DNA of 64,000 nt from positions 74,205-138,204 of the forward strand of contig JANRKS010000021.1 of the NCBI GenBank assembly GCA_033763315.1. The letters are read 5' to 3'. Of this stretch, positions 8,095-35,172 are shown in pieces. Positions within the stretch are counted from its first letter, which is position 1. Each line of letters starts with the position of its first letter. Both the position numbers and the translations under genes were made by a program. Below the pieces are notes generated by a model. The model was not told the DNA's origin. It did not search any database and was given only the letters and a program-made list of their open reading frames with translations. This DNA is from Deltaproteobacteria bacterium (GTDB lineage Bacteria > Myxococcota_A > Polyangia > Fen-1088).

Positions 8095-8261
8095 CGTGCC
8101 ACGACTGTTAGCGCAACGGACGCACATCATTGCGTGACAATTTGGAACACTCGCGCGACAAAATATTCACACGCAAGACGTCCGTCTCTCAACTTCGTCG
8201 CCAGCTCGTTGCTATGTGGTCATAAAAACGTCTTACGTGTGCTGCATCTTGGCCTGGCACC

Positions 8262-9320: not shown

Positions 9321-9322
9321 TC

Positions 9323-11133: not shown

Positions 11134-11139
11134 GAGACT

Positions 11140-15679: not shown

Positions 15680-16578
15680 GCGCAACGAACATCAAAGTGG
15701 CTGACCGGATGATTGGCGAAGGTATGCCCGTGTTTGTGATTGCCGAAATCGGCATCAATCACAACGGCGACATGGCGCTCGCAAAGCGTTTGATCGACGG
15801 AGCGGTTTTGGCAGGCGCGGACGCTGTCAAGTTTCAAAAGCGCACGCCTGAGCTGTGTGTTCCCAAGGACCAATGGTTGCAAGAGCGCGACACGCCTTGG
15901 GGCCGCATGACATACATCGATTACCGCCGGCGCATTGAATTCGGCCAAGCGGAGTACGAACAAATCGACAAGCACTGCAAGGAACGCGGCATCTTGTGGT
16001 TCGCCTCGTGTTGGGATGAACCCTCTGTGGATTTCATCGATGCCTTTTCGCCCCCTTGCTATAAGGCCGCTTCGGCCTCTCTGACCGATCACCCGCTACT
16101 GGCTCGCATGAAGGCCACGGGTCGGCCGTTGATGATCTCCACGGGCATGTCAACCTTGGCAGAGATCGACGCAGCCGTGGGCGTGCTTGGCTTCGACAAT
16201 CTGATGATTGCGCATTCGACATCAGCCTATCCCTGCCCCGTCGATTCGCTCAACCTGCGCATGATTCACACCCTGCGGGCGCGCTATCCTGAGGCCTTGA
16301 TCGGATACTCGGGCCACGAAACGGGGCTGGCCACCACGTGGGCTGCGGTTTCCATGGGAGCCACATTCGTCGAACGCCACATCACGCTTGACCGCGCCAT
16401 GTGGGGAACGGATCAGGCGGCGTCGGTCGAAATCGGCGGGCTTATGCGCCTGGTTTCCAACATTCGCGACATTGAACGCTCTTTGGGCGATGGGGTCAAG
16501 CGTGTCTACGAGCCAGAGCTCGCGATGCGCCAGAAACTGCGGCGTGTGCAAAGCGTGGTCGAAGCGAGCGCCAACTGA
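15676..16578 (+). CDS. neuB: NeuB-family nonulosonic acid synthase lacking the C-terminal SAF/AFP-like domain
   Basis: IAEIGINHNGD, ADAVKFQKR, ISTGMS, STSAYP, GYSGHE, ERHITLDR; ends about 20 aa after LGDGVK (300 aa). Confidence 0.85.
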   Translation: MSATNIKVADRMIGEGMPVFVIAEIGINHNGDMALAKRLIDGAVLAGADAVKFQKRTPELCVPKDQWLQERDTPWGRMTYIDYRRRIEFGQAEYEQIDKHCKERGILWFASCWDEPSVDFIDAFSPPCYKAASASLTDHPLLARMKATGRPLMISTGMSTLAEIDAAVGVLGFDNLMIAHSTSAYPCPVDSLNLRMIHTLRARYPEALIGYSGHETGLATTWAAVSMGATFVERHITLDRAMWGTDQAASVEIGGLMRLVSNIRDIERSLGDGVKRVYEPELAMRQKLRRVQSVVEASAN

Positions 16579-16580
16579 TC

Positions 16581-17387
16581 GTGAACGCCCAGCTGCTGTC
16601 CACGGCCGTCATCGTCGGCTCTGCTCTTGTGTTTATCTTGCTTGAACGCTGGCGTCCCTATGATGAACGCCAGCGCTTCTTGCGCGATGAGTTCTGGAGC
16701 GACTTACTGCTTTATACCTTGGCGCAAAGCTATGTGTTGGGGTTCGCGATCCCTTGGATCAGCTCGGCATTGGACAAAGCCCTTGGCGTTTCGAGCTGGG
16801 GCTTGCTCGCAGGGTGGCCGGTTGCAGCACAGTTCGCGCTGTTTTTCGTGACCCACGATCTCTACATCTATCTGTTTCACCGGGCACAACACCGCTGGAA
16901 GTGGCTATGGCGCTTGCATGAGGCACATCACAGCACCAAAGATGTAGATTGGCTCTCGGGATCCCGTTCACACGCACTTGAGATCTTGATCAATCAAACC
17001 ATCGAGTTCGCGCCGCTTGTGTTGTTGCGCGCGCACCCGTCGGTCGCCCTCTTGAAGCTGACCGTGGATGCGGTGTGGGGCATGTACATCCACACCAACA
17101 TCGACGTTCGTTCGGGTTGGTTGCAGTACGTCATCAATGGTCCCCAGATGCACCGTTGGCACCACGCCAAAGAAGTGACCGATGGACACCTCAACTACAG
17201 CACGAAGCTTGCGGTGTGGGATTGGCTATTTGGGACAGCATACTTGCCTCACAGACACAAACCACAAGCCTACGGGATGTTTGGCTATGATGTTCCGCGA
17301 GGGTTTTGGGCGCAGTTCTGGTTTGCCTTTCGATCGCCGCAGCCACCCGAAACTCAGGTAAGCTCGGCAAAGAGCCTTTCGTACTGA
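16581..17387 (+). CDS. Fatty-acid hydroxylase / sterol desaturase superfamily membrane enzyme
   Basis: His boxes HRAQH, HEAHHS, HTN, HRWHH; NYS...WDWLFGT. Confidence 0.85.
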   Translation: MNAQLLSTAVIVGSALVFILLERWRPYDERQRFLRDEFWSDLLLYTLAQSYVLGFAIPWISSALDKALGVSSWGLLAGWPVAAQFALFFVTHDLYIYLFHRAQHRWKWLWRLHEAHHSTKDVDWLSGSRSHALEILINQTIEFAPLVLLRAHPSVALLKLTVDAVWGMYIHTNIDVRSGWLQYVINGPQMHRWHHAKEVTDGHLNYSTKLAVWDWLFGTAYLPHRHKPQAYGMFGYDVPRGFWAQFWFAFRSPQPPETQVSSAKSLSY

Positions 17388-18193
17388 GCAACAGAGGCCG
17401 CCAAAGACAGACGCTGTTGTTGGGCGATGACTCTTGCGCGCGCTTCGTGCCACAGGGGCGAGCCAAAGGATGCATTATAGCGGTCTAAACAACACTGAAC
17501 GTCTTGCGGCTGCAGCGATGTCAAGAAATAGGGATAGTCATCCCCCAAAAGCTCAACCGCGCCTGGCTCCTTGCCGCCTATGAACACCGCGTGTGACGCT
17601 GAACAATTGGCAAGCTTCACAACCGACTTCGTCACATCAAGCCGGCCCGAAAAGTGCGCGTTGTAGGCGCGGAGCCGTTCCCGCCAATCCGCCTTCTTGA
17701 AATCCAAGAGCGCAACGCCGCGCAGCCCACCTTTGCTGCCGATGGAATTAACCGTTTCGCCCACGTAGACAAGTTTTGCCTGCATCACAGGGTGGTGCGG
17801 CAGAATGTGGGGATCGGCGTGGTGGTAGAACACGAATGCCCGCCCCGCAGGGTATTGCGCGAGGTACACATCTCTTGTTGCCTCGCTGCCAAAAAGAACC
17901 GCCGCACAGGCGCCTTCACAGTCGCGCAACAGGCGCGGATCATGGTCCAGGGCATCGAGGATCAAGATGTTTCGCTTCGCATGCAGAGCGTGATGCCTAT
18001 GTGGCTGGCTTTTGACGCACACAATGATGCTGTCGCGCACGCCCCGCAACGCCCACAGCGAGGGCCCTGCGACGGCCACACAGTTCCAGCCTCGGCAGCG
18101 CAGGGCTTCCGCCACCTGCATGCCCCTCATCGTGAACGATGGTCTGCGGCGGTGTGACCAAAAGATGACCGGCCTAGACCGCAACGTGGACAC
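17354..18193 (-). CDS. Hypothetical protein, possibly a divergent GT-B glycosyltransferase
   Basis: Continuous ORF coupled to the flippase stop (probable GTG start at 18193). MRGMQVAEAL, ILDALD, LVYVG and KSVVKLAN resemble GT-B elements. Confidence 0.45.
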   Translation of the reverse strand: MSTLRSRPVIFWSHRRRPSFTMRGMQVAEALRCRGWNCVAVAGPSLWALRGVRDSIIVCVKSQPHRHHALHAKRNILILDALDHDPRLLRDCEGACAAVLFGSEATRDVYLAQYPAGRAFVFYHHADPHILPHHPVMQAKLVYVGETVNSIGSKGGLRGVALLDFKKADWRERLRAYNAHFSGRLDVTKSVVKLANCSASHAVFIGGKEPGAVELLGDDYPYFLTSLQPQDVQCCLDRYNASFGSPLWHEARARVIAQQQRLSLAASVAQYERLFAELT

Positions 18194-19673
18194 GTCGACC
18201 CACTCCCAGAAACGGCCACAAGACCAGCAGATACCCAACAATGAAGACCGCAACCGGCAGCCACACCGAATGCGAAAGGCTAGCCGAAACAAAGGCCGAC
18301 ATGGCAGCGATGCTCACAGGAATCGTGGCAGCCAACAGTGGTCGAGCTGAAAACCGAACATTGAGCAACACGCGCACTTGCGCAAGCTGCAGGATCTGCT
18401 GCACGCACGTGCCTGTGGCCACGGCAATGGCGGCTCCCAAAAGCTGAAGCCGAGGCACCAAAAGCAGGTTCAATGAAACGTTCACGGCTGTGGCTATCAC
18501 CGCGTTGACAAGGTTGAGAGCGGGGCGGCCGCTCATCCCTAACACGTTTCCCGACAGTCCAAACGTGCAGCTGACAACCGCGCTTAACAGCAACACAACG
18601 AAAAAGGAGGTTTGCCCCGTGGGCGCCTTGGCGACCTCGAGAATGCCATGGCGTAACAGAATGCAAAGGCCAGCCACCGGTGCCGCCAGCCACAAACACC
18701 AACCACTAACTTTGCCGATGCTTTGGGAGAGCAGGCTCGTTCTTCCCTCGCGAGCCAAGCGCGCCACGAGGCTCGCGTAAACGCCCGCGAACGCCACACG
18801 GATCGTGAAGATCTGTCGAGCGATCTCGGAACCTACCCGGTAGGCCGTAATTAGTCTGTCAGGCAGTGATGCCATTCCCAAGAGCAACAGGTCGACGTCA
18901 AACGTGGCTTGATAAAAGGCCATGTTTAAGGACTGGGGCAGAGCGAACCTCAAAACCGCGCGGTGAGGAGCGGCGCCCCAGGCGCTCCGCAACCCATGAG
19001 GCTTAAAACGCCTACAATAGAGGAAGAGCGCGACCGCCGCGGCCGTCACTTGTGAAATGGTGAAGGCCCAGCAGATGGCGATGGAGGTTGGCGTTGCTTG
19101 GCGCAACAAGGCAAGCGAGGCGAAGAGAACAAGCGGCAGCACAAGGCTCTTGACGATCACGTCGCTTCCCATGCGCATCGAAGATCGCATCACTGCCGTG
19201 GTGATCGAGGCGAGTGACATGAAGGGAAGGCTGGCCGCCACCACCAAGAAGGCCGGTCCCAACCCCGGACGTGAAAACAGCAGACTTCCCAGGGTCTCGC
19301 CGGTCGCCCCAAGGACAATGGCACACAACGTGGAGACGCCTATCGCGTAGGCGGCGGCAGCAAGCACGACGCCATGGATGCGCTCGATGTCCTTTCTCTT
19401 CAGCTCCGTGTCGAAGGGATGGGCGCACAAGAACTGGGCGGCGTCTGAGAAGCCTGCGGAGCACAGAAACGAACAGATACCAACGCTTGCCATCACGAGA
19501 GCCACGCCTGAGAAACCGGGGCCGTACAGGCGCGACGCGACCAGAGGCAACAACCCGAGCGACAGTCGACCCAACGTTCCGAGAAGATTCACGAAGGCCC
19601 CGCGCTTAAGCAACGTATAGTCAGCGGCGCCAGCCAACGCGCCCCCCACGGACAGGCAAGGGAACTCTTGCAC
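18174..19673 (-). CDS. Oligosaccharide flippase (Wzx/MOP superfamily)
   Basis: 12-14 TM segments; RLYGP, LRFALP, DLLLLG, VLGMSGRP, LLVPRLQLLGAAIA. Confidence 0.8.
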   Translation of the reverse strand: MQEFPCLSVGGALAGAADYTLLKRGAFVNLLGTLGRLSLGLLPLVASRLYGPGFSGVALVMASVGICSFLCSAGFSDAAQFLCAHPFDTELKRKDIERIHGVVLAAAAYAIGVSTLCAIVLGATGETLGSLLFSRPGLGPAFLVVAASLPFMSLASITTAVMRSSMRMGSDVIVKSLVLPLVLFASLALLRQATPTSIAICWAFTISQVTAAAVALFLYCRRFKPHGLRSAWGAAPHRAVLRFALPQSLNMAFYQATFDVDLLLLGMASLPDRLITAYRVGSEIARQIFTIRVAFAGVYASLVARLAREGRTSLLSQSIGKVSGWCLWLAAPVAGLCILLRHGILEVAKAPTGQTSFFVVLLLSAVVSCTFGLSGNVLGMSGRPALNLVNAVIATAVNVSLNLLLVPRLQLLGAAIAVATGTCVQQILQLAQVRVLLNVRFSARPLLAATIPVSIAAMSAFVSASLSHSVWLPVAVFIVGYLLVLWPFLGVGRRVHVAV

Positions 19674-19871
19674 GCGTCCTCCGCTGTATCCGAAAACCGT
19701 TCATTCGCCCGCAGCCTTACCACTCGCGCCGGACATCGCACGAAACGAAACGGCGACAGCGCGCGCCGGCCTTCACCGCGGCCACGTGAATTGAGCGTAA
19801 CGTGAGATTTTCGTTCTCGTCGTCAACCCGCTACGACGTTGCCACGGAAGCCCATTACCATCGAGCCACAG

Positions 19872-21095
19872 ATGCATCGCAAAGGGCGTCATTGCTCGCT
19901 GGGGTTTTCACGCCGCACCGTCGTTGCCGGGTTGTTGTCGGCGGGTGCGGCGACCCGGTTCGATGGGGACGCGCCCTGCTCGAGGAGTCCCTTGCTGTCG
20001 ACGTTTTGGTGTCCCTCAGCTTTGACCGTGGAGCAGCACACAGATCCCGCCATCGCTAAGCTGGCTGCCCTGCACAGTCCGGCCCTTGCCTTTACGAACC
20101 CAAACATGTGGCCCGTTGACGTGTCGTATAGCTGGCACGACGGCAGCGACCTGTACTTCGAGGACGTAGGCGGCAAACAGCGAACCGTTCTCACCAATCG
20201 GCTGCTTCGCGAACCGGCAGCCTTCTTTGCACCCAGCGCCGATCACCGCCGCAAGCACTACATCAACAGCCCAGGCGATGGCCCACAGCAAGACGCGTGG
20301 GCGACGGCGTGGCTACGCATTCAAGGACACACGCCCGCAACGGCACTTTATCCACCCACGCAATACGTTCACGCATTTTGGTTGAACCGCCACCTGGGCC
20401 TCTTGGCGATCCAGTATTGGTTCTTCTACCCATTTAATGACTGGGTGAATCGCCACGAAGGCGATTGGGAGCACGTGGCCACGGTGTTCAAAGGCCCAAC
20501 CGCGCTGGAGAATCCCGGCGCCTTCACGCCGGTGGCCACGTTCTTCTATTTTCATGAATGGGTACATGAGGCAAAACAGGTACTGCACCTCAGAGGTGGT
20601 TCTGCCGCTGCAAAGCATCCCGTTGTTTTCGTGGGGGGTCAGGGCGACATGTGGAACCTGTGGCACTGTTCACATCGACAAAGCGGCGGCAGCTACCCTT
20701 GCGCTGGTAGGTTTGCGAACGCAGGTGCCGACAGGGGTTGGCTGGTGTCACCGTCCGAACAGGTCCAGCCTCCCGCGAGGATCATCCTGCCCGAGGACTT
20801 TAGATTGGTCATGCTGCCTGAGCCTGACCACGTGTCCGAACGGCAGTGGCCTCAACTTTGGTGGCTGCGTTGGAACCTGTTCTTTGGGCAACGCCGGATC
20901 GACGGCAATTTGCCATTGATGGGTGCGCTCGCGCTGGACCATCCGCCACATCACCCCGGGCAACACGTCGACTGGAATATGCGTACCAAGCGTCGGCTGT
21001 GGCCCGGCATTGCGCCGCCAACTAACCCGCTAGTCTTGCCGGCAGCGGTTCGGGATCGCCTCGTAACAATAGACGACCGTGCAAAGCTCACGTGA
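19872..21095 (+). CDS. Vps62-like (HEGDWE-motif) protein with possible Tat signal
   Basis: AIQYWFFYPFND...HEGDWEHV and HPVVFVG motifs; N-terminal SRRTVVAGLL; start uncertain (19839 TTG or 19872 ATG). Confidence 0.55.
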   Translation: MHRKGRHCSLGFSRRTVVAGLLSAGAATRFDGDAPCSRSPLLSTFWCPSALTVEQHTDPAIAKLAALHSPALAFTNPNMWPVDVSYSWHDGSDLYFEDVGGKQRTVLTNRLLREPAAFFAPSADHRRKHYINSPGDGPQQDAWATAWLRIQGHTPATALYPPTQYVHAFWLNRHLGLLAIQYWFFYPFNDWVNRHEGDWEHVATVFKGPTALENPGAFTPVATFFYFHEWVHEAKQVLHLRGGSAAAKHPVVFVGGQGDMWNLWHCSHRQSGGSYPCAGRFANAGADRGWLVSPSEQVQPPARIILPEDFRLVMLPEPDHVSERQWPQLWWLRWNLFFGQRRIDGNLPLMGALALDHPPHHPGQHVDWNMRTKRRLWPGIAPPTNPLVLPAAVRDRLVTIDDRAKLT

Positions 21096-21295: not shown

Positions 21296-22270
21296 ATGCG
21301 CGAATACAGAAGGGTTTTGGTCACCGGCGGAAACGGATTCATCGGTTCACGCGTTGTGCGCGCTTTGGTATCGCGTGGCATCACGGTCCGCTGTCTTCTG
21401 CGAACCACGTCCAATACGTCACGGATCGATGGTCTGCCGTTTGAGCGCGCGATGGGCGACGTGCGCGACGCGGAATCCGTTCGCCAAGCCTTCAACGGCT
21501 GCGACGCGGCCGTTCATCTCGCCAGCCTCTCAAATTGGAATGACATTGATTCCCCCTTAATGACGGAGGTGGTGATGGGCGGCACGCGCAACGTGTTGGA
21601 CGCGGCCAAGCAATGTGGGAACAAGTTGGTGGTGTTCGTTTCATCGGCGGCGGCGGTCAATGGCTCCGAAACGCCGGAGGTCTTTGCTGAGAATGCGGAG
21701 TTCACGCTGAACCACGCGAAATTGTCTTATGCGCAACACAAGCGCGACGCCGAGGCCTTGTGTGCGCAAAGCGGCGTCCCAGTGGTGGTGGTGAACCCCA
21801 CAGAGGTGTATGGCCCGGAAGACATTGGTTTGATCACCGCAGGTAACCTCGTTGATTTTGCGCGTAGCTCACCAGTGATGGTATGCGACGGTGGCACCAG
21901 CATCGTCCACGTTGACGACGTGGCCGACGGGATCGTCCAGGCGTTGCACCGGGGCCGTCCTCACGAGCGTTACATCCTTGGCGGCGACAATCTGACCGTG
22001 ACGGAACTGGCGCAGATGACGTTGAGTCTGGTGGGACGCAAAGCACGCGTGGTAAAATTGCCGAAGACGGCCATAAGGGCCTTGGCCTCCGTGGGGCGCG
22101 CCACGAAATTGCCGTTGCCCTTTAACCCGCGGGTTATCCCTTACGCCACCCGCTATTGGTTTACCGACAACAAGAAAGCCCGCACGGAACTCGGCGTTGA
22201 CTTTCGCTCCGCCGAGGCAACGCTGCGCCCCACCTTGCAGTGGCTGCAACAAACGGGACACATCTCATGA
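21296..22270 (+). CDS. NAD-dependent epimerase/reductase (extended SDR, HpnA/DFR-like)
   Basis: VLVTGGNGFIGS, HLAS, VSSAAA, YAQHK, VNPTEVYGP, VHVDDVA; ATGA-coupled to the PKS. Confidence 0.85.
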   Translation: MREYRRVLVTGGNGFIGSRVVRALVSRGITVRCLLRTTSNTSRIDGLPFERAMGDVRDAESVRQAFNGCDAAVHLASLSNWNDIDSPLMTEVVMGGTRNVLDAAKQCGNKLVVFVSSAAAVNGSETPEVFAENAEFTLNHAKLSYAQHKRDAEALCAQSGVPVVVVNPTEVYGPEDIGLITAGNLVDFARSSPVMVCDGGTSIVHVDDVADGIVQALHRGRPHERYILGGDNLTVTELAQMTLSLVGRKARVVKLPKTAIRALASVGRATKLPLPFNPRVIPYATRYWFTDNKKARTELGVDFRSAEATLRPTLQWLQQTGHIS

Positions 22271-25200
22271 GCAGGCTCCCCTCGCCCATCGCGATTGTAG
22301 GGATGGGCTGCCGCTTCCCAGGCTCCCCGAACATTCCAGCTTACTGGCGCACGATCAGGGATGGCAAAGTGTGGCTCGCGCCTGTGCCGCGATCGCGCTG
22401 GAACCACGACCTGTTCTATAGCCGCGACAGGGGCTTTCGTGACGCCAACAAGACCTATGTGGATCGCGTCTCACTCATCGATGGGCCTGAACTATTCGCG
22501 CCTGAGGCATTCGGGATCGCCCCCAAGCGCGCGCGTATCATGGACCCCCAGCAGCGCTTGTTCTTGGACGTCGTGCGCGCCGCCCTTGAGGACGCCGGCT
22601 ATGCGAAGCGAGAGCTGAAGCGGGATCGCGTTGGCACGTTTGTGGGCGCCTGTGTTTCCGACTTCATGGATCTGGTCACCGTACGTATGCGGGCAACGCT
22701 GTTGGCCGGCGGCGAATTCGGAGCTCCCTTGCAGGGCGACGAGATCCACAACGAGCTCACAAAGAACGTTGTGCCTCTCGCCGCACATACAGTGGTTGGG
22801 TCACTGCTCAACATGGTGGCGGCGAACGTGAATCAGGCCTATGACTTCGGCGGTCCTGCGTTCAGCACGGACGCTGCCTGCTCATCGGCCTTGGTGGCCC
22901 TTCATGAAGCCATGCTGCATCTGCGACATGGCACCTGCGACACGGCCATCGTCGGCGGTGTGTACATGGTGCTTTCACCCGACAACGTGCTCGGATTTTC
23001 GCGTATAGGGGCTGTGTCTGAGGCCAACATTTGCCGGCCGTTCGATCAGCGCGCCGACGGCTTCGTGGTGGGCGAAGGCATTGGCGCGGTGGTCTGCAAA
23101 CGCCTTGAAACCGCGCTCGCCGACAAAGATCGAATTTATGCCGTCATCCCAGGGATGGGCATGAACAACGATGGGCGCGGCGACGGTCCGATGACGCCTC
23201 GTAAAGAAGGTCAGCTCGCCGTTCTGGAGCGGGCCCATCAGGACAGTGGCATCGCGCCTTCGCGGGTTGAAGTTGTGGAGGCGCATGGCACCGCCACACC
23301 GGTGGGAGACGCCACCGAGGTTGCCGCGTTGGCCGAGTTCCGCGGCGATACATCGGGCCGGCCCTGTGCCCTCTCATCAGCGAAGGCCAACATCGGGCAC
23401 TCCATGAGTGCGGCCGGCATCGCCGGCTTGATCAGGGCAACGCTGGCGGTTCATCACGCAACGATTCCGATGCACGCTTCATACGAGCAGCCCCGCGCAG
23501 ACCTTCGGCTGCATGAGAGAGGCCTATACATCCCCAACCGCAGCATCCCCTGGCAGCGCCAGGACGCGCTTCCTCGCACGGTAGGTGTCAGCTCTTTCGG
23601 CTTTGGTGGCACCAACTGCCACGTCATCGTGCAAGAGCCATCCACCTCATCTGCAAGCACAACTCGTGTATTCATGAGCCATTCGATCGAGTCGCCGCCG
23701 CCGCGGCCCGAACTGTTTTTGCTTTCAGCACCAACGGCCGACTTGCTCTGTGAGACAGCCGTTGACCTTCTGGAAGCCTTCGTCGAACAAAACGATGTGT
23801 CGTTGGCAGGCATCGCCGCGAGCCTCGCATCGCGCACCGCTTCGCCTCACCGTGCCGCCTTCATCGCCAGCTCTCATCAACAATTCATCGCGGCGCTGCG
23901 TTGGCTGGCAGCGCCCTCGTCGGAAGAGCCTTCACACATCCACTTAAATCGCGAACCAGTGGGCTCTGATGTGCCAAAGCTCGCCATGCTCTTCCCTGGG
24001 CAGGGCGCCCAAAAGCCCGACATGGCGCGGCCGCTCTACGAACGCTTCGGTGTCTTTCGTGAAGCGCTGGATGCTCTCACAGCAGACTGCGCGATCGATG
24101 GGCGTGCGTTGTTGTCTTATCTTTACCCAACCAACGGCGCACGAGAGAAGGCGCGTGCCACGCTATCGCGCACAGAGATCTGTCAGCCCCTCATGGCCTC
24201 ACTGGGCCTTGCAAGCGCTGCGTTCTTTGATGCCCTGGGTGTCCGTGCGCACGCGGTCGCAGGCCACTCCTTGGGTGAATTTGCAGCCGCTGCGGCCGCG
24301 GGCATTCTGCCGGCACACGAGGCGGTGCAGCTCGTCGCTCGCAGAGGTGCACTCATGGCGTCTATGGCTTTGCCTGATTCAGGAGCCATGCTTGCTTTGT
24401 CCACCGATGCGGCCACCGCGCAAAGAGGTGTGTCACAGCATGATGGATGGGTTGTAGCCAACATCAACCACGCCCGGCAAACAGTGATAGCGGGACCGCG
24501 CGCCTCATGTGAAGCGGTGGCCACTCACTTTCGTGAGCTCTCCATCAAGGCCGTTGCCCTTGACGTATCACATGCCTTTCATTCGCCGTTGATGGACGGC
24601 ATCACGCAGCCCTTCACCTGCTTGGTCAAGCAACTACCGCTGGGGCCAGCAAAGATACCCTTTGTCAGCGCTGTGGAGCCGTCGCTCAGCCCGCTTGCGC
24701 CAGAGCAACTGCGCGCGGCCTGGACGAGGCACGCCACCGCGCCCGTAGATTTCATTGAAACAGTGAGGTCGCTGCACGAGCAAGGATGCCGCGTGTTCCT
24801 GCAAGTGACGGGCGGCCATAGCTTATTAAACATGGCGCGACACACGCTGGCCCACACAGATCCAAGCTGCTCGTACTTGGCCATCACTCAGGATGAGGGG
24901 GACGACGGCACCACATGCCTGCAGACCCTCGCGCGGCTCTTTACGCTTGGCTTCTCCGTGGATGCGCGAGGCCTTGAGGATCCAGCCGCAGACAGAACCG
25001 CCGTCTCGCTGCCGCCATCGCGCCTGCAAACACGAGCGCTGTGGCCCGTCAAACGCGAAACCGTTGCCGCCACCCCACACACCGTCAGCATGCCCAACAA
25101 CGACACCACACCGATGATGCAGCCCAAGCCTCAAGAACCGGCCGCCGGCGGCATGGCCACCGAATCCCCCGCAACGAGACTGAGGGCCCTGTTTGCGCAA

Positions 25201-28200
25201 CAGATGGCGCTGATGGATGCGCATGTGGAGATCATCCGCAAACAAAACGAACTGCTTGCGCAAGCCGCTCAAAGCCCGGCTGCAGAGTTGGCGCCCTTGA
25301 GGCCAGCCGCGCCGGCGACGTCGGCCCCCCCCGTCGTTCAAGCCGCGGCCGTCGCTGCCAGCGTATTTGAGCAACTTCGAGGTGTGGTGAGCCGCATCGC
25401 TGTCACTCCAATTGAAGGGCTGCATTCGCGCACGCGCCTCGGAGCGGATCTTGGGTTCGACTCGTTGATGATCACAGAGCTTTCGGCAGCCCTCACAGAG
25501 GCGTTCAACGGGCTGACCTTGCCTCGCCGCTTGTTTGAAACGGATCTAACGTTGGGGACGTTGGAAAAGGAGATCCGCGACCGCGTCCAAGCGCCCGAAC
25601 CAGCGACGAAGGTGGCCCAAGAGATACGCCTGTTTGAACCAAAGTGGGTGGCGCGTCCGCTCCGCCGCAACGCAAGCACACCATCTGAGAATGGCGCGGT
25701 CGTTCTCCTCAGTGCTGGTGATGATTGGGCTCCCGCACTGGCGAAGGCACTAGAACAGCGTGGACGCACCGTGAGAGCGACAAGCAGCGTACAAGACCCG
25801 TCGCTGCTCAGCGCCCATGTGATCGATCTGCGTCTACTTTCCATCCATGGCACGAACGATGCCGTAAACCTTCTGCAAAGCCTGCGACAAGTGGCGCAGC
25901 GGCGGCCAAGCACATGGCATGTTCTTGCTCACACGCAGAACGCCGCACCCGTGGGTGGTTTTCTTCGCTCGCTTAGCCACGAGGCCTATGGAGCTCAGTT
26001 GGGTTCCGTCGCGTTGGACGATGACGTGACGCCGTCACCAGAGTTTATAGAGGCACTGGTGCAGACCCTGCTGTCTGGCAAGTTTGACGAGGAGGTGCGT
26101 TTCACAGTGGCGGGCGGCCTCGGCCCCTTGTCAACGCAGTTTCATGCCCACGCCTTGCCTTCAACGTTCCCCTCCGCTGCAGGTGTGTTGCTGATTTCGG
26201 GCGCCACGGGTTCCATCGGCGGCAAGCTCGCGCGGCACTACGCCTGCAGCCAGGCGTCGTTGGCACTGCTTGGCCGCAAACCTGCGGACGCGCCAGACGT
26301 CTCAACGTGGCTTGCTGAATTGCGTTCACTTGGTGCAAAGGTTCACTACGCGAGCTGCGACATAACGGATGCGTCAGCTGTGAACAAAGCGGTTCTTGAC
26401 GCGCGGGCGGCTTTGGGTCCGATCACGGCCTGCCTTCACGCCGCGGGCGAGACAGACGATCACCCGGTTCACGCACCCTTTACGGACGCAACAGCCGCCG
26501 TGGTAGCAACCAAAGTGGACGGCGCAGAGAACCTTTGGAACGCACTTCAGAACCAACCGCTGATCACCTTCGTTGCACTTGGTTCGTGGGCGGCACGCTT
26601 TGGCAACCGGCACCAAACAACGTACGCGTTTGCGAACGCTTTGCTCGCGTCCGTAATGTCACGCTTTGAAAGCACACGCCCACAGGTACGCTGCTGCGTG
26701 CTGGAGCTGCCTGCTTGGCGGGGCACGGGGATGGTAACAAAGTTACCTGTCGCCGCGCGCGTGCAGCTTGAAAGCCAGGTGGAGACACTGGCGGATTCGG
26801 AAGGTGTCAACGTTATTGCAGCAGCCCTTTCTGGTGCGCTGGCGAGCGGCACCTACGTGGTGGCGCGACGCCTGCCTCCGATCGAAGAGACCTTCGGTTG
26901 GACACAGACGCTGGCTCCTGATGCCCCTGGCTATCTTTCCTCGCACGTCATCGCCGCACGCCCTGTCCTTCCGTTGGCCGGCGCGATCGATCTCATGTTG
27001 CCCGCCCTCGCCCACCAAGGCATCAAGCTGCCCCTGGCACTGCGAGACGTGGAGGTCGTGCAGGGCGTTGTTCTCGAAGGCGACTCGGCAACGGTGCTCA
27101 CCCGCGTGCGCAATGGTGAAGCCGGCACAATCGTCGAGACGATTAGGCTTGATGATCGAAACCAGATCGGGTTTCGGGCCACCTTGAGCGTCATAGACGA
27201 TCTTCAACCTGTGCAGCTTGGTGACTTGCGAGAGGCTACGTTCGGCGTTGAGCACTTCTATCAACACGCCACATTTCACGGCCCGGCCTTGCGGCCACTG
27301 TTGCAAGTCCGTGGCGTAAGTCAGCACGCGATCTCCGCGCTATGCGAAGCGTCCAGTGTCGAGGGCGGCACGACGCTTGTCAGTGGGCTCGATGGCGTCC
27401 TGCAGGTCTTTGCCTTCTGGTCCGCACATACGTTGGGGCGCGCAGGCTTGCCGTTGGCGATCGACGCGATCCACATCCTCCGCCAACCCGTGGCGCACGA
27501 GGTTCTGTATATTGAAGCCACCGTTGCCACCAACGAGGACGGAACGATGCGCGGCGACGCCGATGTGCGCGACGAACACAACCAACTGGTGTTCAGGCTC
27601 CGGGGTTTCAAAGGCGAACCTCGCGATCTCACCCGACTCGCGGCCGGCCGTAGCCTCGCGTCCGCACGTGTCTTGCCGGAGCGCGAGACGGTATTCGATG
27701 CGCCGCTTGAACACACCAGCGTGCAACACTTTCCAGAGGTGCAAGAGCTGGCGCGCAGAATCACCGCTGCGAAGACCGCGGGAATGCAGATTCCCTATTT
27801 TCGCGCCCACGATGGCATAAACGGAGCCACCGCATCACTGCACGGACGATCGCTGCTGAACTTCTCTTCGTACAACTACCTCGGCTTTTCAGGTCATCCC
27901 GAGGTCACGCGCGCCGCCCAGCGTGCGATTGAAAAGTTCGGCTCTTCGGTGTCTGCCAGCCGGATTGCTTCAGGCGAACGACCGCTTCACCAGCAACTGG
28001 AGCGCGCCCTGGCAAAGCTTCTCGGCAGTGACGATGCCCTTGTGATGGTCGGCGGCCACGCAACCAACGTGTCCATCATCGGTCACCTGCTTGGCCCCGC
28101 AGACCTGGTGATCCATGACAGCCTCGCGCACGATAGCATTCTCGGTGGGGCGCGCTTGTCAGGCGCACGACGACGTCCGTTCCCACACAACAATGTGGAT

Positions 28201-28962
28201 GCCTTGAGGCGGATGTTGCGGGAAAGCCGCACCCAAGCGCGGCGCGTTCTGCTCGCCGTGGAGGGCGTGTACAGCATGGATGGCGACCTGGCACCGCTTG
28301 ACAAGCTCATCGAGCTCAAGCGTCAGTACGGCTGTCTGCTGCTCGTGGACGAGGCCCATTCATTGGGCGTCATCGGACCAACCGGCGCCGGCGTTGGAGA
28401 GCACTTCGGCGTCAATCGCGGCGACGTAGATCTGTGGATGGGCACGCTCTCGAAGTCGCTCGCCAGTTGCGGTGGTTACGTCGCTGGCGTGCGGCACCTC
28501 ATCGAATACCTGCGTTACAGCTTGCCGGGCTTCATCTACAGCGTTGGCATATCACCGGCCAACGCGGCCGCCGCATTGGCGGCACTCGATCTGATGGAAA
28601 GGCAGCCTGAAACGGTGGCGCGCCTGCAAGAGCGCTGCCGATACTTCCTGACTCTTTGCGAAGGCTTAGGCATTAACACCGGCCCCTCGCGAGGGTCAGC
28701 GATCGTGCCTTGCATCGTGGGCAATTCCGCCCTCTGCATGCAACTTTCGCAGGCTCTCCTCGCGCGTGGCATCAACGTGCAGCCCATCGTGTACCCGGCC
28801 GTGGAAGAGGATCAAGCGCGTCTTCGCTTCTTCATCTGTGCCACCCACACCGAAGAACAGCTCCGGCAAACCGCCAGCGCGTTGGCGCAAGAGTTGTTTC
28901 GGTTGCAGCCGCCTCACATGATCGATGCGATTGACCGCCACACCGTGGCCAACGGAGGATAG
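22267..28962 (+). CDS. Type I PKS KS-AT-ACP-KR-DH fused to a C-terminal alpha-oxoamine synthase (SPT/AONS-like PLP) domain
   Basis: KS: DAACSS (Cys ~22879), EAHGTAT, KANIGH. AT: GHSLG (~24262) and HAFHS (malonyl type). ACP: LGFDSL (~25459). KR: GATGSIG (~26200), YAFAN. DH: HVIAARPVLP (~26944), LDGVLQ. AOS: NFSSYNYLG, VEGVYSMDGD, DEAH (~28348), GTLSK (~28453). No ER or TE. Confidence 0.92.
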   Translation: MSRLPSPIAIVGMGCRFPGSPNIPAYWRTIRDGKVWLAPVPRSRWNHDLFYSRDRGFRDANKTYVDRVSLIDGPELFAPEAFGIAPKRARIMDPQQRLFLDVVRAALEDAGYAKRELKRDRVGTFVGACVSDFMDLVTVRMRATLLAGGEFGAPLQGDEIHNELTKNVVPLAAHTVVGSLLNMVAANVNQAYDFGGPAFSTDAACSSALVALHEAMLHLRHGTCDTAIVGGVYMVLSPDNVLGFSRIGAVSEANICRPFDQRADGFVVGEGIGAVVCKRLETALADKDRIYAVIPGMGMNNDGRGDGPMTPRKEGQLAVLERAHQDSGIAPSRVEVVEAHGTATPVGDATEVAALAEFRGDTSGRPCALSSAKANIGHSMSAAGIAGLIRATLAVHHATIPMHASYEQPRADLRLHERGLYIPNRSIPWQRQDALPRTVGVSSFGFGGTNCHVIVQEPSTSSASTTRVFMSHSIESPPPRPELFLLSAPTADLLCETAVDLLEAFVEQNDVSLAGIAASLASRTASPHRAAFIASSHQQFIAALRWLAAPSSEEPSHIHLNREPVGSDVPKLAMLFPGQGAQKPDMARPLYERFGVFREALDALTADCAIDGRALLSYLYPTNGAREKARATLSRTEICQPLMASLGLASAAFFDALGVRAHAVAGHSLGEFAAAAAAGILPAHEAVQLVARRGALMASMALPDSGAMLALSTDAATAQRGVSQHDGWVVANINHARQTVIAGPRASCEAVATHFRELSIKAVALDVSHAFHSPLMDGITQPFTCLVKQLPLGPAKIPFVSAVEPSLSPLAPEQLRAAWTRHATAPVDFIETVRSLHEQGCRVFLQVTGGHSLLNMARHTLAHTDPSCSYLAITQDEGDDGTTCLQTLARLFTLGFSVDARGLEDPAADRTAVSLPPSRLQTRALWPVKRETVAATPHTVSMPNNDTTPMMQPKPQEPAAGGMATESPATRLRALFAQQMALMDAHVEIIRKQNELLAQAAQSPAAELAPLRPAAPATSAPPVVQAAAVAASVFEQLRGVVSRIAVTPIEGLHSRTRLGADLGFDSLMITELSAALTEAFNGLTLPRRLFETDLTLGTLEKEIRDRVQAPEPATKVAQEIRLFEPKWVARPLRRNASTPSENGAVVLLSAGDDWAPALAKALEQRGRTVRATSSVQDPSLLSAHVIDLRLLSIHGTNDAVNLLQSLRQVAQRRPSTWHVLAHTQNAAPVGGFLRSLSHEAYGAQLGSVALDDDVTPSPEFIEALVQTLLSGKFDEEVRFTVAGGLGPLSTQFHAHALPSTFPSAAGVLLISGATGSIGGKLARHYACSQASLALLGRKPADAPDVSTWLAELRSLGAKVHYASCDITDASAVNKAVLDARAALGPITACLHAAGETDDHPVHAPFTDATAAVVATKVDGAENLWNALQNQPLITFVALGSWAARFGNRHQTTYAFANALLASVMSRFESTRPQVRCCVLELPAWRGTGMVTKLPVAARVQLESQVETLADSEGVNVIAAALSGALASGTYVVARRLPPIEETFGWTQTLAPDAPGYLSSHVIAARPVLPLAGAIDLMLPALAHQGIKLPLALRDVEVVQGVVLEGDSATVLTRVRNGEAGTIVETIRLDDRNQIGFRATLSVIDDLQPVQLGDLREATFGVEHFYQHATFHGPALRPLLQVRGVSQHAISALCEASSVEGGTTLVSGLDGVLQVFAFWSAHTLGRAGLPLAIDAIHILRQPVAHEVLYIEATVATNEDGTMRGDADVRDEHNQLVFRLRGFKGEPRDLTRLAAGRSLASARVLPERETVFDAPLEHTSVQHFPEVQELARRITAAKTAGMQIPYFRAHDGINGATASLHGRSLLNFSSYNYLGFSGHPEVTRAAQRAIEKFGSSVSASRIASGERPLHQQLERALAKLLGSDDALVMVGGHATNVSIIGHLLGPADLVIHDSLAHDSILGGARLSGARRRPFPHNNVDALRRMLRESRTQARRVLLAVEGVYSMDGDLAPLDKLIELKRQYGCLLLVDEAHSLGVIGPTGAGVGEHFGVNRGDVDLWMGTLSKSLASCGGYVAGVRHLIEYLRYSLPGFIYSVGISPANAAAALAALDLMERQPETVARLQERCRYFLTLCEGLGINTGPSRGSAIVPCIVGNSALCMQLSQALLARGINVQPIVYPAVEEDQARLRFFICATHTEEQLRQTASALAQELFRLQPPHMIDAIDRHTVANGG

Positions 28963-28964
28963 CG

Positions 28965-29852
28965 ATGCCACTATTTGCACGCTCAGACGGAGAGTTGGTG
29001 CACACCGAAACACCCGTACGAAGCATTTTGCCGTACGTGATGCGGGGCCGAAACGAAAGCGCGATCTATCATCAGGAAACGTACGACATCACGCGCACAC
29101 GTTCGTGGCTGCGTCAGTTCAATCGGGCCCGCGGTAACAAGCTGCCAGCCAGCTTGTTTCATCTGTTCTTATTTGCATGCGCCCAGGGCCTACACCGCCG
29201 CCCCGAACTAAACCGGTTTGTCTCAGGCGGTCGCCTCTACCGACGCAAAGGTGTTTTTATTTCGTTCGCGGCCAAGAAGGCGTTCAAAGACGACGCGCCC
29301 TTGGTGACCATCAAGCTGTCGTTTCCAGAGATTGAATCATTCGAGCACGCGGTCGATCGCATAAACGAAGCGATTATGCAGGGCCGTGGCGACCGGAGCA
29401 CCACCGTGGATAAAGAGCTGGCTTTGGCGATGGCGCTGCCACGTTGGTTGCTGCGCGCGGTGATGGCGCTGCTGCGGTGGCTCGATGGTATGAATCTTAA
29501 GCCGCGCTTCATGATTGAAAGTGATCCTCTCTACACAAGTTTGTTTGTGGCGAACCTGGGCTCCGTGGGGTTGGATCGTGTGTTCCATCACCTTTACGAA
29601 GACGGCACGGCCAGCGTTTTTGGCGCGCTTGGCGTGCCACGCAAGGCAACCGCGTTAGATCGTCACGGACGCGTCCAGACGCACGACGAGGTTGAGGTGA
29701 GGTGGACGCTCGACGAACGAGTGGCCGACGCCTTCTATTGCGCAGCCAGCTTGAAGATCGCCAGGCGCATCATTGAGGATCCGGCGCGTCACTTCGGCGC
29801 GGAGAACATGACGCTTCCGGCTGTAGAAGAAGCGGCCCTGGTTTCAGGTTGA
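28965..29852 (+). CDS. Stand-alone 2-oxoacid-dehydrogenase E2 / CAT-fold acyltransferase-like protein
   Basis: RPELNRFVSG, FVANLGSVG and WTLDERVADAFY align to the E2 catalytic domain; no lipoyl domain; starts 2 nt after the PKS stop. Confidence 0.7.
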   Translation: MPLFARSDGELVHTETPVRSILPYVMRGRNESAIYHQETYDITRTRSWLRQFNRARGNKLPASLFHLFLFACAQGLHRRPELNRFVSGGRLYRRKGVFISFAAKKAFKDDAPLVTIKLSFPEIESFEHAVDRINEAIMQGRGDRSTTVDKELALAMALPRWLLRAVMALLRWLDGMNLKPRFMIESDPLYTSLFVANLGSVGLDRVFHHLYEDGTASVFGALGVPRKATALDRHGRVQTHDEVEVRWTLDERVADAFYCAASLKIARRIIEDPARHFGAENMTLPAVEEAALVSG

Positions 29853-29933: not shown

Positions 29934-31505
29934 ATGAAGGTGAACACGTTTCTCTCGTTAGGTATTTTCGCAAGCTTGTTCCTGATCGGCTGCACAAGCT
30001 CAGACGATAACAATGGCGTCATCGATGATCAGCAAGTGCTTCCTGATATGGCCGCGCCGCAAACAGTTCGGCTAGGCAAACGGTCGACCGTCGAGATCGA
30101 TATCCCTGCGAATGCCTTGCCCAGCCGCCAACCATTGACCGTCAACGTGCGGACAGATGTTGTTCGTAAGGGGGCCATTCCGGTTGGTCAATCCGTTGAG
30201 TTCTCGCCGGGGGGCCTAACCTTCACGTCGCCCGTGCGGGTGCGGCAGGCGTTGCCGGCCCCCTCCCCAATGCGTCGCTACGCCGCCTTCGCATCCAGCA
30301 CCACTACAGACGTTTGGGTTCGTCGCGGCCGTGGCCGCAAGCTAGGCCCCGGAGCGAGCCCGCAAACGGAAGTGTGGGAAGTGGAAGCTGACACAACAGG
30401 CTTGTGGGCCTTCGTTGAAGAAGCCGATGAAGTGACAGTGGTGGATGCAGGCGTTCCGGCCGACGCCGAAGCGCCTGTGGATGTCATGCCCTTGCCGGCT
30501 CCTGCTGCGCTCGTGACCGATGCGCCGGCGATCAATTTCGGCGACGTGGTTTTGGGCTCACAATCTCCGTCGCAAACGATCGTGGTGACGAACACGGGCG
30601 CCATGAATACGGGGGCCATCTCCGTATCTTTGACAGCTGATGTATCGGGCACGTTTGCCGTAAAAGCCGGCTCAACCTGCCAAGGCGCGGATCTCGCTGG
30701 CGCACAGACTTGCGCCATCCAGGTGTTCGCGCTGCCGGGTCAGGGTGTGCCGATCGGAGGGACCATGCTGATCATGTCTTCCTCCGGTGCGCAGGCGATG
30801 GTTACGTTGACTGTTAAAGGCGTAAAGCCTCCTTTGCTGGGGGCCAGCACCGCGAATCTCAGTTTTCTGCCGGCGCCCATCAATGCCACGGGCGAAAGCA
30901 AACTCGTGACCATCACGAACACGGGTGATCTGCCCACCGGTCCCATCGCCATTGAGCTCAAAGGCACCGACGCCACCAGTTTCTCCGTCACAGCCAACAC
31001 GTGCACGGGTGCCTTGATGGCAGGGAAAACCTGCATGGCGACGATCACCTTCACGCCAGCAAAAGTAGGCAACGCCGTCGCAAGCCTGGTTGCCAGCGGC
31101 AGCCCCGGCGGCGCCGCGGTGACGAACCTGGGCGGCACGGGACAAGCTTCCGATCAGGGCGCCAGACTCGTGTTCACGAACCCTGCGGCCGGAGGCAATC
31201 AAGTGAACTTCAACGAGTCAGCAACCAACACGTGTTCAGATCCTATCGTCTTCACCGTCACGAACCAGGGCGCCTACATAAGCGAAGCCATCACCTTTGC
31301 CTTCACGGGCGCGGATGCAGACGATTTCGTGGTGTTGCCCACAGGCGATGGCTGTTCAGGCAAGCGCCTGCCCGCCGCTAGCTCATGCATGACGACTTTC
31401 AACATCTGCGCCAACAATTTCGGGCTGCACTATGCAACAGTCACCGTGAGCGCGAAGGCTGCGGCCGCATCGTCTAGCCTCGATCTCTACGGCTATTCCT
31501 ATTAG
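29934..31505 (+). CDS. Lipoprotein with a ZU5-like domain and three Ig-like (choice-of-anchor D/ASH-type) domains
   Basis: Lipobox LFLIGC; IPANAL...VEFSPGGLTFTSPV (ZU5-like); three repeats of NFG/F...VTNTG...C...L...C. Confidence 0.65.
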   Translation: MKVNTFLSLGIFASLFLIGCTSSDDNNGVIDDQQVLPDMAAPQTVRLGKRSTVEIDIPANALPSRQPLTVNVRTDVVRKGAIPVGQSVEFSPGGLTFTSPVRVRQALPAPSPMRRYAAFASSTTTDVWVRRGRGRKLGPGASPQTEVWEVEADTTGLWAFVEEADEVTVVDAGVPADAEAPVDVMPLPAPAALVTDAPAINFGDVVLGSQSPSQTIVVTNTGAMNTGAISVSLTADVSGTFAVKAGSTCQGADLAGAQTCAIQVFALPGQGVPIGGTMLIMSSSGAQAMVTLTVKGVKPPLLGASTANLSFLPAPINATGESKLVTITNTGDLPTGPIAIELKGTDATSFSVTANTCTGALMAGKTCMATITFTPAKVGNAVASLVASGSPGGAAVTNLGGTGQASDQGARLVFTNPAAGGNQVNFNESATNTCSDPIVFTVTNQGAYISEAITFAFTGADADDFVVLPTGDGCSGKRLPAASSCMTTFNICANNFGLHYATVTVSAKAAAASSSLDLYGYSY

Positions 31506-34413: not shown

Positions 34414-35172
34414 TTGTTGCCACTTTGGAACGCCGCGGCGACTGAATGCCCGGCCATCCTGCCGGCGGAAGCCTCGTACGTGACCACCGGGTCCCCCGAA
34501 TTTCGCTATAGATGGCGGTTGTTGCCAGAGCCTCTTTCACTTTTCGCCCCACTGTGGCGGTCGTTCACCAGCGCCCCAACCACAGCCACCGAAACGCCGG
34601 GGATCCGCGCCGACTGGCACAAAGGCCGCCCCCGCTACGCCGTTTGGGTGGTGCGCGTCAGTCACCCCGCCGTAAACGAACGCGTGGCCGCCCTGGGACA
34701 GGCCTTGAAGCCCTGGCTCATCCCGCAGCCCGATCTGCACGTGACATTGGGCATCGCGGGCTTTCCGCGCCGCCAGTGCGTGGAAGACGACGACGTTTCG
34801 GAGAACGTGCTGGCCGCCCAGGCGGACGCCGTGGCTGCGTGGGCGCGTGCCACTTTATTTCGCGTGCACGGCGCGTGCGCCTTCTTGGCGGCGCCTTTTC
34901 TGTGTGTAACGGACGACCATCACAGCCTGCGCGACCTGCGGGCGCTGCTTGATCCGCCAGGCCGTGCGTTGAGCATCGAAGCTTACGTGCCACACGTGAC
35001 TGTGGGGCGTTGGAATGGCGCTCACGCCACGGCCGCTGTGGCCCTGCGAATGGAGCCTTTTCGCAACGGCGACCCCATCGACGTGAAGGCCGATGCCGTG
35101 GAATTGGTGGACTACGACGCGGCCGATCCGCAGGCCCGGCTCGTCACGAAAGTGCGCGTTCCGATGCCTTAG
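34414..35172 (+). CDS. 2H phosphoesterase (2'-5' RNA ligase-like) family protein
   Basis: Two HxT motifs (LHVTL, PHVTV); true start uncertain, probably downstream of 34414. Confidence 0.7.
   Translation: MLPLWNAAATECPAILPAEASYVTTGSPEFRYRWRLLPEPLSLFAPLWRSFTSAPTTATETPGIRADWHKGRPRYAVWVVRVSHPAVNERVAALGQALKPWLIPQPDLHVTLGIAGFPRRQCVEDDDVSENVLAAQADAVAAWARATLFRVHGACAFLAAPFLCVTDDHHSLRDLRALLDPPGRALSIEAYVPHVTVGRWNGAHATAAVALRMEPFRNGDPIDVKADAVELVDYDAADPQARLVTKVRVPMP

Follow-up and report, generated by a model that had tools for sequence, protein, structure and literature searches.

Bacterial sphingolipid producers are now recognised by three markers, the serine palmitoyltransferase (SPT) Spt, the reductase CerR and the ceramide synthase bCerS, a GNAT-like enzyme. 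These markers belong to the pathway described in Caulobacter and E. coli BL21 (Spt, AcpR, AasR, CerR and bCerS/YghO); CC_1154, the N-acyltransferase of Caulobacter, has yghO (ECD_02850) as its homologue in E. coli BL21 (PMC9386255). Another route has been reported for Pseudomonas fluorescens MYb115, where PfSgaAB make sphingolipids derived from a polyketide synthase (PKS) with a separate iterative PKS and a separate alpha-oxoamine synthase. That 2025 paper (PMC12134224) shows the serine specificity of the alpha-oxoamine synthase PfSgaB, proposes a KDSR-like classical short-chain dehydrogenase/reductase (SDR) as the reductase, and establishes that a PKS can feed sphingoid-base synthesis. Here we describe a three-gene unit found in a 64,000-nucleotide stretch of the genome of a Deltaproteobacteria bacterium (GCA_033763315.1, contig JANRKS010000021.1, positions 74,205 to 138,204 of the forward strand; hereafter the window, whose numbering is used throughout). 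The unit encodes a reductase (RED), a PKS fused to an alpha-oxoamine synthase (PKS-AONS) and a protein resembling the E2 subunit of 2-oxoacid dehydrogenases (E2L).

The same three chemical steps are expected here as in the Caulobacter/BL21 pathway, and RED is an extended SDR of the same kind as CerR. However, there is no stand-alone Spt, the AONS domain being fused to the PKS and falling outside the SPT clade. Moreover, no homologue of bCerS was found in the source genome (YghO query, taken from the annotated E. coli BL21 record, no match at E<=10 in a genome 90.85% complete), and the E2-fold protein fills this slot of the operon. With the SgaAB cluster, compared by description only, the unit shares a type I PKS that passes its chain on to an alpha-oxoamine synthase and has a reductase close by. 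In that cluster, however, the PKS and the alpha-oxoamine synthase are separate genes and the reductase is KDSR-like, whereas the window has a single PfaA-order protein without an enoylreductase (ER) domain, a CerR-like reductase and a coupled E2-fold gene. Note that term searches of the PMC12134224 text available to us found no passage naming a dedicated N-acyltransferase, and neither 'fused' nor 'fusion' occurs in it. Our results make it very likely that the unit is an operon for a sphingolipid-type lipid, built from a fused PKS-AONS that is both new and widespread. That the three genes make a ceramide-like membrane lipid of the sphingolipid type, with E2L carrying out the N-acylation, is the reading we favour, at slightly better than an even chance. 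This ceramide reading is supported by context and unproven. E2L, likewise unproven, is a good candidate for a ceramide synthase that is non-homologous to the known one and has its active site rebuilt.

Three plus-strand open reading frames (ORFs) were found where the sequence-only reading had placed them. RED (21296-22270, plus strand) is a 324-aa extended SDR and putative CerR-like 3-keto reductase, with a PF01370 match and the motifs GGNGFIG (residue 11) and YAQHK (residue 145). It starts with an ATG at 21296 (an alternative TTG lies at 21290), and its TGA stop (22268-22270) overlaps the ATG of the PKS gene (22267-22269) in an ATGA at 22267-22270 of the plus strand. The PKS-AONS gene (22267-28962, plus strand) encodes a 2231-aa protein with a type I PKS module in the PfaA-like order ketosynthase (KS), acyltransferase (AT), acyl carrier protein (ACP), ketoreductase (KR) and dehydratase (DH), followed by the AONS domain. 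Its TAG stop (28960-28962) is separated by CG, a 2-nt gap, from the ATG of E2L at 28965. E2L itself (28965-29852, plus strand) is a stand-alone E2-fold protein of 295 aa, recognised by a weak PF00198 match, its model fold, the histidine pair HH208-209 and the motif D250-E251-R252. The tight coupling that had been claimed for the three genes is thus read directly from the sequence. A gene caller that uses GC at the third codon position supports the three calls and leaves gaps of 195 nt upstream of RED and 81 nt downstream of E2L. Judged from these junctions, the RED, PKS-AONS and E2L genes are predicted to be translationally coupled. A scan for consensus promoters and terminators gave no signal beyond the shuffled expectation, with 0 promoter-like sites and 12 terminator-like sites against 10.4 expected.

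A domain scan of PKS-AONS, on the plus strand, located the KS at residues 6-406 (22282-23484), with the Cys-His-His triad in DAACSS 202, EAHGTAT 338 and NIGHS 375; the AT at residues 575-888 (23989-24930), with GHSLGE 666 and HAFH 769; the ACP at residues 1036-1100 (25372-25566), with GFDSL 1063; and the KR at residues 1306-1471 (26182-26679), with GATGSIGG 1312 and the Tyr of YAFAN 1453. These are followed by a PKS-type DH at residues 1541-1782 (26887-27612), with weak PF21089 and PF14765 matches, His1560 in HxxxAxxxxP and Asp1709 in DxxxQ, and by the Aminotran_1_2/AONS domain at residues 1863-2206 (27853-28884; PF00155, E 9e-54), with HDSLAHDS 1950, DEAHS 2028 and, in TLSKS 2060, the Lys for pyridoxal phosphate (PLP). 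The motifs of the KS, ACP, KR, DH and AONS domains are kept in 11 of 11 full-length orthologues and both AT motifs in 10 of 11, one having HGFH. The KS triad, the AT GHSxG, the ACP Ser, the KR Tyr and the DH His and Asp of a type I PKS module were all located, and the conserved His, Asp and PLP-Lys motifs place the last domain in the alpha-oxoamine synthase family of fold type I PLP enzymes. The catalytic roles of these residues are those we assume from general family knowledge, and HAFH is presumably a malonyl-type motif. In a shorter Thermoanaerobaculia orthologue of 2047 aa (locus L079, 3854-9997), GHSLGE and HAFH are unaligned; because neither aligns, this protein may lack an acyltransferase domain of its own.

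The KS-AT-ACP-KR-DH order is that of PfaA-type subunits of polyunsaturated fatty acid (PUFA) and heterocyst-glycolipid synthases, and TIGR02813 (PfaA) scores 524 bits over the KS-AT part. Unlike those subunits, the window protein has a single ACP and a C-terminal AONS release domain, and no PfaB, PfaC or PfaD genes adjoin it in the window. No ER domain was found in PKS-AONS, and none is present or conserved nearby; the genome was not searched for a trans-acting ER. The fused architecture is widespread: at least 1403 proteins of 1227-3905 aa match the DH-AONS part at E<=1e-50, a lower bound since the best 8000 candidates were scored. These relatives carry only generic names, such as '8-amino-7-oxononanoate synthase'. 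In a quick maximum-likelihood (ML) tree in which long branches were flagged, and which included as SPTs the E. coli BL21 Spt, CFB-type SPTs and SPTs adjoining bCerS, the AONS domains of 13 fused proteins form a clade of their own (SH-aLRT 100). The source genome (7.6 Mb) holds three AONS-family genes, namely the PKS fusion, a Kbl that scores above both equivalog cut-offs and adjoins the threonine dehydrogenase gene (tdh), and a BioF that adjoins bioD.

The reductase had been read from the sequence as a member of a non-standard family, and this label fails. RED matches PF01370 (E 8.5e-31), carries the GxxGxxG and YxxxK motifs, and is 29% identical over 215 aa (E 2e-14) to the CerR homologue encoded in the sphingolipid cluster of E. 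coli BL21. Moreover, both proteins have the same best NCBIfam model, TIGR03466 (HpnA, 'hopanoid-associated sugar epimerase'), on which RED scores 222 bits, under the cut-off. Because of this identity and this shared model, RED is to be seen as an extended SDR of the same HpnA-like kind as bacterial CerR, a likeness at the family level only.

The arrangement of the three genes recurs elsewhere. The window proteins were searched by tblastn against 82 loci encoding E2L relatives, taken from genome records of Myxococcota, Acidobacteriota and Planctomycetota with up to 10 kb per side. An AONS lies directly upstream of E2L in 19 of these loci; the whole KS-AT...AONS protein is present in 15 of the 19, and contig ends cut the remaining 4. 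RED lies directly upstream of the PKS in 8 of the 19, and in 3 further loci, from planctomycetes, it lies directly downstream of E2L, with no PKS within the 10 kb fetched per side. An absence carries little meaning in several of the remaining loci, which are short contigs. Since 19 of the 82 loci share the AONS-E2L order, 8 with RED upstream, and 3 more have RED downstream, the arrangement is not due to chance, and the view that the three genes form one unit is upheld. Note that the gene caller missed or merged E2L in some loci, so that gene maps were used only where tblastn agreed. In a tree of 89 E2L sequences (quick ML search), the window's protein falls in a subclade of 22 rows, of which 16 are PKS-linked and 3 RED-linked.

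In other genomes, PKS and E2L have as neighbours lipid genes of the kinds usual in sphingolipid clusters. Four genomes from another family (G093, G148, G173 and G213) have E2L, by its coordinates, directly upstream of a stand-alone SPT, and no bCerS match was found in any of the four. Two of these loci were mapped (L103, 4685-9865, and L104, from G173 and G213) and reveal a second operon type, in which a fused LptF/G-like permease gene (752 aa) is followed by E2L, the SPT and a classical SDR, with CDP-alcohol phosphatidyltransferase and nucleotidyltransferase genes just upstream. LptF/G-like genes are thus found with these related E2L-SPT operons as well as with the sphingolipid cluster of E. 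coli BL21, which is flanked by LptF/G paralogues. A PAP2_3 gene, like those of inositol phosphorylceramide (IPC) or sphingomyelin (SM) synthases (we take PAP2_3 to be linked to the IPC synthase Aur1), follows E2L in L057 and in Geothrix L062, and in L032 and L033 a PAP2_3-desaturase fusion stands before E2L. The IPC-synthase homologue of Bacteroides has been described (PMC9246714). A GH3-like gene and a myo-inositol-1-phosphate synthase gene lie downstream of E2L in L027. FA_hydroxylase or AurF-like di-iron genes stand between PKS and E2L in other genomes (a PF04116 gene in L001 and L005), in L025, L027 and L028 the PKS is preceded by acyl-ACP-desaturase-like genes, and L079 has a membrane desaturase gene upstream of RED-PKS.

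E2L also occurs fused to other domains, as in the PAP2 (PF14378/PF14360)-E2L proteins P0121 and P0122, the E2L-WS/DGAT protein P0126, the FA_desaturase-E2L protein P0127 and the E2L-GMC oxidoreductase protein P0128. In P0123 and P0124, a fatty acyl-AMP ligase (FAAL) and an ACP precede E2L, so that the FAAL and ACP pair of the Caulobacter/BL21 pathway recurs, fused to E2L in Planctomycetota. Such an order is expected if E2L draws its acyl group from a thioester on a carrier protein. The same architecture was seen in the Planctomycetota loci L074, L075 and L081, where FAAL-ACP-E2L is a single open frame (7832-10846 in L075) followed by a RED homologue. One planctomycete contig with FAAL-ACP-E2L also bears a PKS-AONS-E2L locus (L016), about 30 kb away.

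We also profiled 401 genomes of the phylum. The fused PKS-AONS is present in 66 of them, with one match each, all at E<=6.6e-118 and, with few exceptions, in open frames longer than 2000 aa, and CFB-type SPT in 92 (E<=1e-115, three matches between 1e-105 and 1e-108 having been dropped). Only 1 genome holds both, which suggests that the two condensing enzymes stand in for each other. The YghO query proved sensitive in this phylum, since it matched 177 of the 401 genomes at E<=1e-5, most of them at 1e-60 to 1e-96. With thresholds set at natural gaps in the E-values, E2L was called in 171 genomes (E<=1e-37) and bCerS in 162 (about 1e-30 or better). Among the 157 genomes with either condensing enzyme, 72 have E2L only, 43 bCerS only, 36 both and 6 neither; for the 66 genomes with PKS-AONS, the corresponding numbers are 32, 13, 18 and 3. 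Almost half of the condensing-enzyme genomes thus have E2L as their only candidate acyltransferase, and nearly all, including 63 of the 66 with PKS-AONS, have at least one candidate. No statistic is attached to these tallies, since related genomes are not independent. They show a partial replacement of bCerS by E2L, and of E2L by bCerS, from genome to genome. The proposal that the E2-like protein is the N-acyltransferase keeps its force to this extent: with no bCerS match in the source genome, the partial replacement and the FAAL-ACP and PAP2 fusions, E2L is the best candidate for the N-acylation step in the operon, and the 36 genomes that hold both proteins count on the other side.

The third protein had also been read as having an E2/CAT fold, and this is borne out by structure prediction. 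E2L matches PF00198 weakly, at 27.3 bits (cut-off 23), and its sequence search against solved structures gave E2b as best match with an E-value of only 0.8. An AlphaFold model built from 27 relatives (mean pLDDT 80.8, pTM 0.80) was compared by Foldseek, and the top matches were all E2 catalytic cores, with probability 1.0 and target-normalised TM-scores of up to 0.83. Because the model matches these cores, the E2/CAT-like catalytic-domain fold read for E2L is upheld. In addition, hhalign of the E2L family profile against the three genuine E2 catalytic domains of the source genome gave a probability of 91.7, with the D-x-R-x-x-D-G frame kept. E2L consists of this fold only: no lipoyl or peripheral-subunit-binding domain was found in its 295 aa. 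Its neighbours are PKS-AONS and RED, not E1 or E3 genes, and the three true E2 genes of the source genome lie elsewhere. The family is large and unnamed, with 1370 proteins at E<=0.001 in a word-seeded search, called 'hypothetical' or 'E2 subunit' at their source and given only a generic 'E2 family' name in the Protein Atlas clusters. NCBIfam has no model for E2L or for YghO, and Pfam has none for YghO.

Taken together, these genes would support a pathway of three steps. Judging from its domains, the KS-AT-ACP-KR-DH module would add malonyl units to an acyl primer held on the module's own ACP, and, barring an ER that acts in trans, the last round would leave a 2-enoyl or 3-hydroxy thioester. 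The PLP-dependent AONS domain would then take the ACP-bound chain, condense it decarboxylatively with an amino acid, probably serine, and release a 3-keto long-chain base. The case for serine is one of context, because the AONS domain falls outside the SPT clade: the head-group genes would need a C1 hydroxyl. RED, as its family suggests, would reduce the 3-keto group, and E2L, on comparative genomics only, would N-acylate the amine in place of bCerS, using an acyl thioester that is probably acyl-ACP (or acyl-CoA); the reduction and the N-acylation could come in either order. A 2-enoyl thioester left after the last round might, speculatively, give a 4,5-unsaturated base without a desaturase, which is conceivable because KR and DH both appear functional whereas an ER is neither present nor conserved in the vicinity.

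Several observations weigh against this ceramide reading, and they concern the distribution of E2L, the identity of the AONS domain and the active site of E2L. E2L and bCerS are not strict alternatives, because 36 genomes have both. Moreover, 63 of the 171 E2L genomes matched neither SPT probe, and for a separate E2L clade, made up of 30 rows from Anaeromyxobacteraceae and Geothrix, neither PKS nor SPT nor RED lies within the stretch of at most 10 kb examined per side. For five genomes with E2L only and no probe match, all AONS-family matches at E<=1e-20 were listed: Kbl is the sole AONS-family gene in G071 and G028, G139 has Kbl and one weak match of 78 bits (these genomes are 93-95% complete), and G121 and G245 have AONS genes additional to Kbl. 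Two Geothrix genomes showed no AONS match above the Kbl range (347-349 bits); two Anaeromyxobacteraceae genomes have SPT-like matches of 485-495 bits, and one Angelobacter genome has matches of 405-412 bits. Because some E2L genomes show no SPT-like gene beyond Kbl, the role of the family in some lineages probably extends beyond sphingolipids, or concerns another amino-lipid there. The two SPT probes are themselves incomplete, because 83 of the 162 bCerS genomes matched neither of them and a third SPT type seems to exist: a divergent AONS-family gene, 32% identical to E. coli BL21 Spt, adjoins the bCerS homologue at G321:C1:5690056-5693001 and G381:C110:8931-11924, and is probably such a type, missed by the NCBIfam CFB-type SPT model at E<=1e-105. 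The tallies, in addition, were compiled by hand from search tables. As a further caveat, sphingoid bases made by way of a PKS are already published, in a route whose genes are separate and which includes no N-acyltransferase. In G121, an AONS domain (L113, G121:C248:1637-2761) scores 372 bits on bioF, below its cut-off, and ends a 1430-aa open frame; it may belong to a different fused synthase.

The sequence-only reading had named the C-terminal domain of the PKS an SPT, and membership of the SPT clade is not borne out. On three NCBIfam SPT models the domain scores 324, 277 and 220 bits (cut-offs 640, 500 and 670), its top NCBIfam score is 356 bits on bioF, under every equivalog cut-off, and in the ML tree a split with an SH-aLRT of 99 sets PKS-AONS with Kbl and BioF, apart from the SPTs. 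The label can only be a functional guess. Since the domain lies outside the SPT clade, below the SPT cut-offs and best on bioF, glycine or alanine are possible substrates, and these would give 1-deoxy-type bases. Prodiginine biosynthesis offers known cases of PKS modules with an alpha-oxoamine synthase at their end, and the grouping with Kbl and BioF, like the absence of an ER domain, which may leave the product unsaturated, would suit a secreted secondary metabolite, a polyketide amino-ketone or amino-alcohol made by a RedL- or CqsA-type condensation with glycine or alanine. We consider this improbable, however. The neighbours across genomes are envelope-lipid genes (LptFG-like, PAP2/IPC-synthase-like, inositol-phosphate synthase, hydroxylases and desaturases), the window adds glycosyltransferases and an MMPL transporter, PKS-AONS is a single-copy gene in its 66 of 401 genomes, almost never together with CFB-type SPT, and 63 of these 66 genomes have bCerS or E2L.

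The role of E2L within a sphingoid-base pathway is the other point to weigh. In the hhalign alignment, the E2 motif DHRxxDG corresponds to D250-E251-R252-x-x-D255 of E2L, so that the canonical catalytic His becomes Glu251, which is invariant in 27 of 27 aligned family members, and the position of the catalytic Ser/Thr is Ala196 in the window's protein and variable across the family. Unlike E2 catalytic domains, E2L thus lacks both catalytic residues, has an invariant His208-His209 pair (HHLYExG) in a loop that aligns with the E2 segment 'IIN', carries a predicted helical insertion of about 32 residues (about 155-187, in both the model and the hhalign alignment) and belongs to a lipid-synthesis context. 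Because Glu251 occupies its position, the canonical E2 histidine cannot, on this alignment, be the catalytic base of E2L, for which the His208/His209 pair or Glu251 are candidates. The fold that had been proposed therefore stands, and the E2/CAT-type catalysis that was assumed with it does not. With both catalytic residues lost, an insertion that E2 lacks, and tight coupling to the condensing enzyme in two unrelated operon types, E2L could be a non-catalytic E2-fold scaffold, lipid-binding partner or regulator of SPT and PKS-AONS, for which the E3-binding protein of pyruvate dehydrogenase offers a parallel. This seems very improbable to us. The 27 aligned sequences, from several phyla, have a mean column identity of 58% and keep the HH pair, E212 and D250-E251-R252-D255, the HH and DER motifs being kept in the E2L fusion proteins too; E2L is also found far from any SPT gene; and acyl-transferring domains follow carrier proteins in assembly lines, the place that E2L takes in the FAAL-ACP fusions. 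These fusions, which set E2L beside a carrier-protein thioester, would also suit a thioester transacylase in the same sphingoid-base pathway, one that loads starters onto the PKS or SPT or shuttles acyl groups between ACP and CoA. In true E2 enzymes, acyl groups pass between CoA and the thiol of a swinging arm. The PKS lacks a loading domain, an E2L-WS/DGAT fusion exists, and E2L occurs in 36 genomes beside bCerS and in others where no SPT was found. Alternatively, E2L could be an O-acyltransferase that decorates the lipid. We nevertheless hold a transacylase or O-acyltransferase role to be unlikely, while granting it a real chance, because the His that E2 uses for thiol-to-thiol transfer is replaced by Glu, because the 72 SPT or PKS genomes with E2L and no bCerS match would lack a known ceramide synthase, and because the fusions and adjacency to PAP2/IPC-synthase-like and desaturase genes fit a ceramide-forming step better. 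Of the three-gene ceramide route as it had been proposed, the conserved unit and its sphingolipid contexts hold, and the SPT clade, the non-standard reductase and the E2-type catalysis do not.

If E2L is the N-acyltransferase of a ceramide-like pathway, as we favour, it would represent a third unrelated enzyme family for ceramide formation, and a case in which the E2 fold has been remodelled to use another catalytic residue. Surveys based on the three markers would then be overlooking many sphingolipid producers among the Myxococcota, Acidobacteriota and Planctomycetota: 72 of the 157 condensing-enzyme genomes in the sampled phylum have E2L and no bCerS match, and PKS-AONS lies outside the SPT clade that such surveys use. 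In literature searches that left subscription journals and supplements outside their scope, no paper was found that ties an E2-like or 2-oxoacid dehydrogenase-family protein to ceramide synthesis, and none that joins sphingolipid, myxobacteria, serine palmitoyltransferase and polyketide synthase. A more extended version of the ceramide reading can be put together from these elements. In it, E2L would be the third independently evolved ceramide synthase (after eukaryotic Lag1/CerS and bacterial bCerS), with an E2/CAT fold, a catalytic centre relocated to His208/His209 or Glu251 and ACP as acyl donor, the base would be a 4,5-unsaturated one of the 3-keto-sphingosine type, and (glyco)sphingolipids would perhaps replace lipopolysaccharide (LPS) in the outer membrane. 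That all of this holds jointly we regard as rather unlikely.

The remaining observations concern the surroundings of the unit. A fatty acid hydroxylase-family gene (16581-17387, plus strand; PF04116, E 2.8e-29) lies about 4 kb upstream of the operon and possibly belongs to the same lipid pathway; it gave no tblastn match at 1e-10 in L001 and L005, the two loci with a PF04116 gene between PKS and E2L. This gene ends a glycolipid-type island (207-17387) that also comprises Gly_transf_sug and PMT_2 glycosyltransferases, an MMPL transporter, two GT4 glycosyltransferases, an LPG_synthase_TM protein, a CMP-sugar-type cytidylyltransferase, split transketolase-like genes, a class III aminotransferase, an SDR and a NeuB-type nonulosonic acid synthase. 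The island may decorate the lipid with sugars. Sorangium is an LPS-less myxobacterium whose outer membrane relies on sphingolipids. In the source genome, at 90.85% completeness, no match was found to LpxC (PF03331), the only lipid A gene searched, or to PAP2_3 (PF14378), and the absence of LpxC would fit an LPS-less myxobacterium with a sphingolipid-reliant outer membrane.

Upstream of the operon, at 17354-21095, lie three ORFs of 312, 499 and 418 aa, with coding-like GC at the third position and no Pfam match; those at 18174-19673 and 19839-21095 gave no tblastn match in the 82 related loci. The ORF at 19839-21095 and the one at 29934-31505, downstream of E2L, were considered as members of the unit and ruled out, neither having a tblastn match at 1e-10 in these loci. 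Finally, further downstream, three genes on the minus strand at 35169-41193 encode two ABC transporters, one of them with a C39 peptidase domain, and an HlyD-family protein, a set that resembles a bacteriocin or peptide exporter and is unrelated to the operon.

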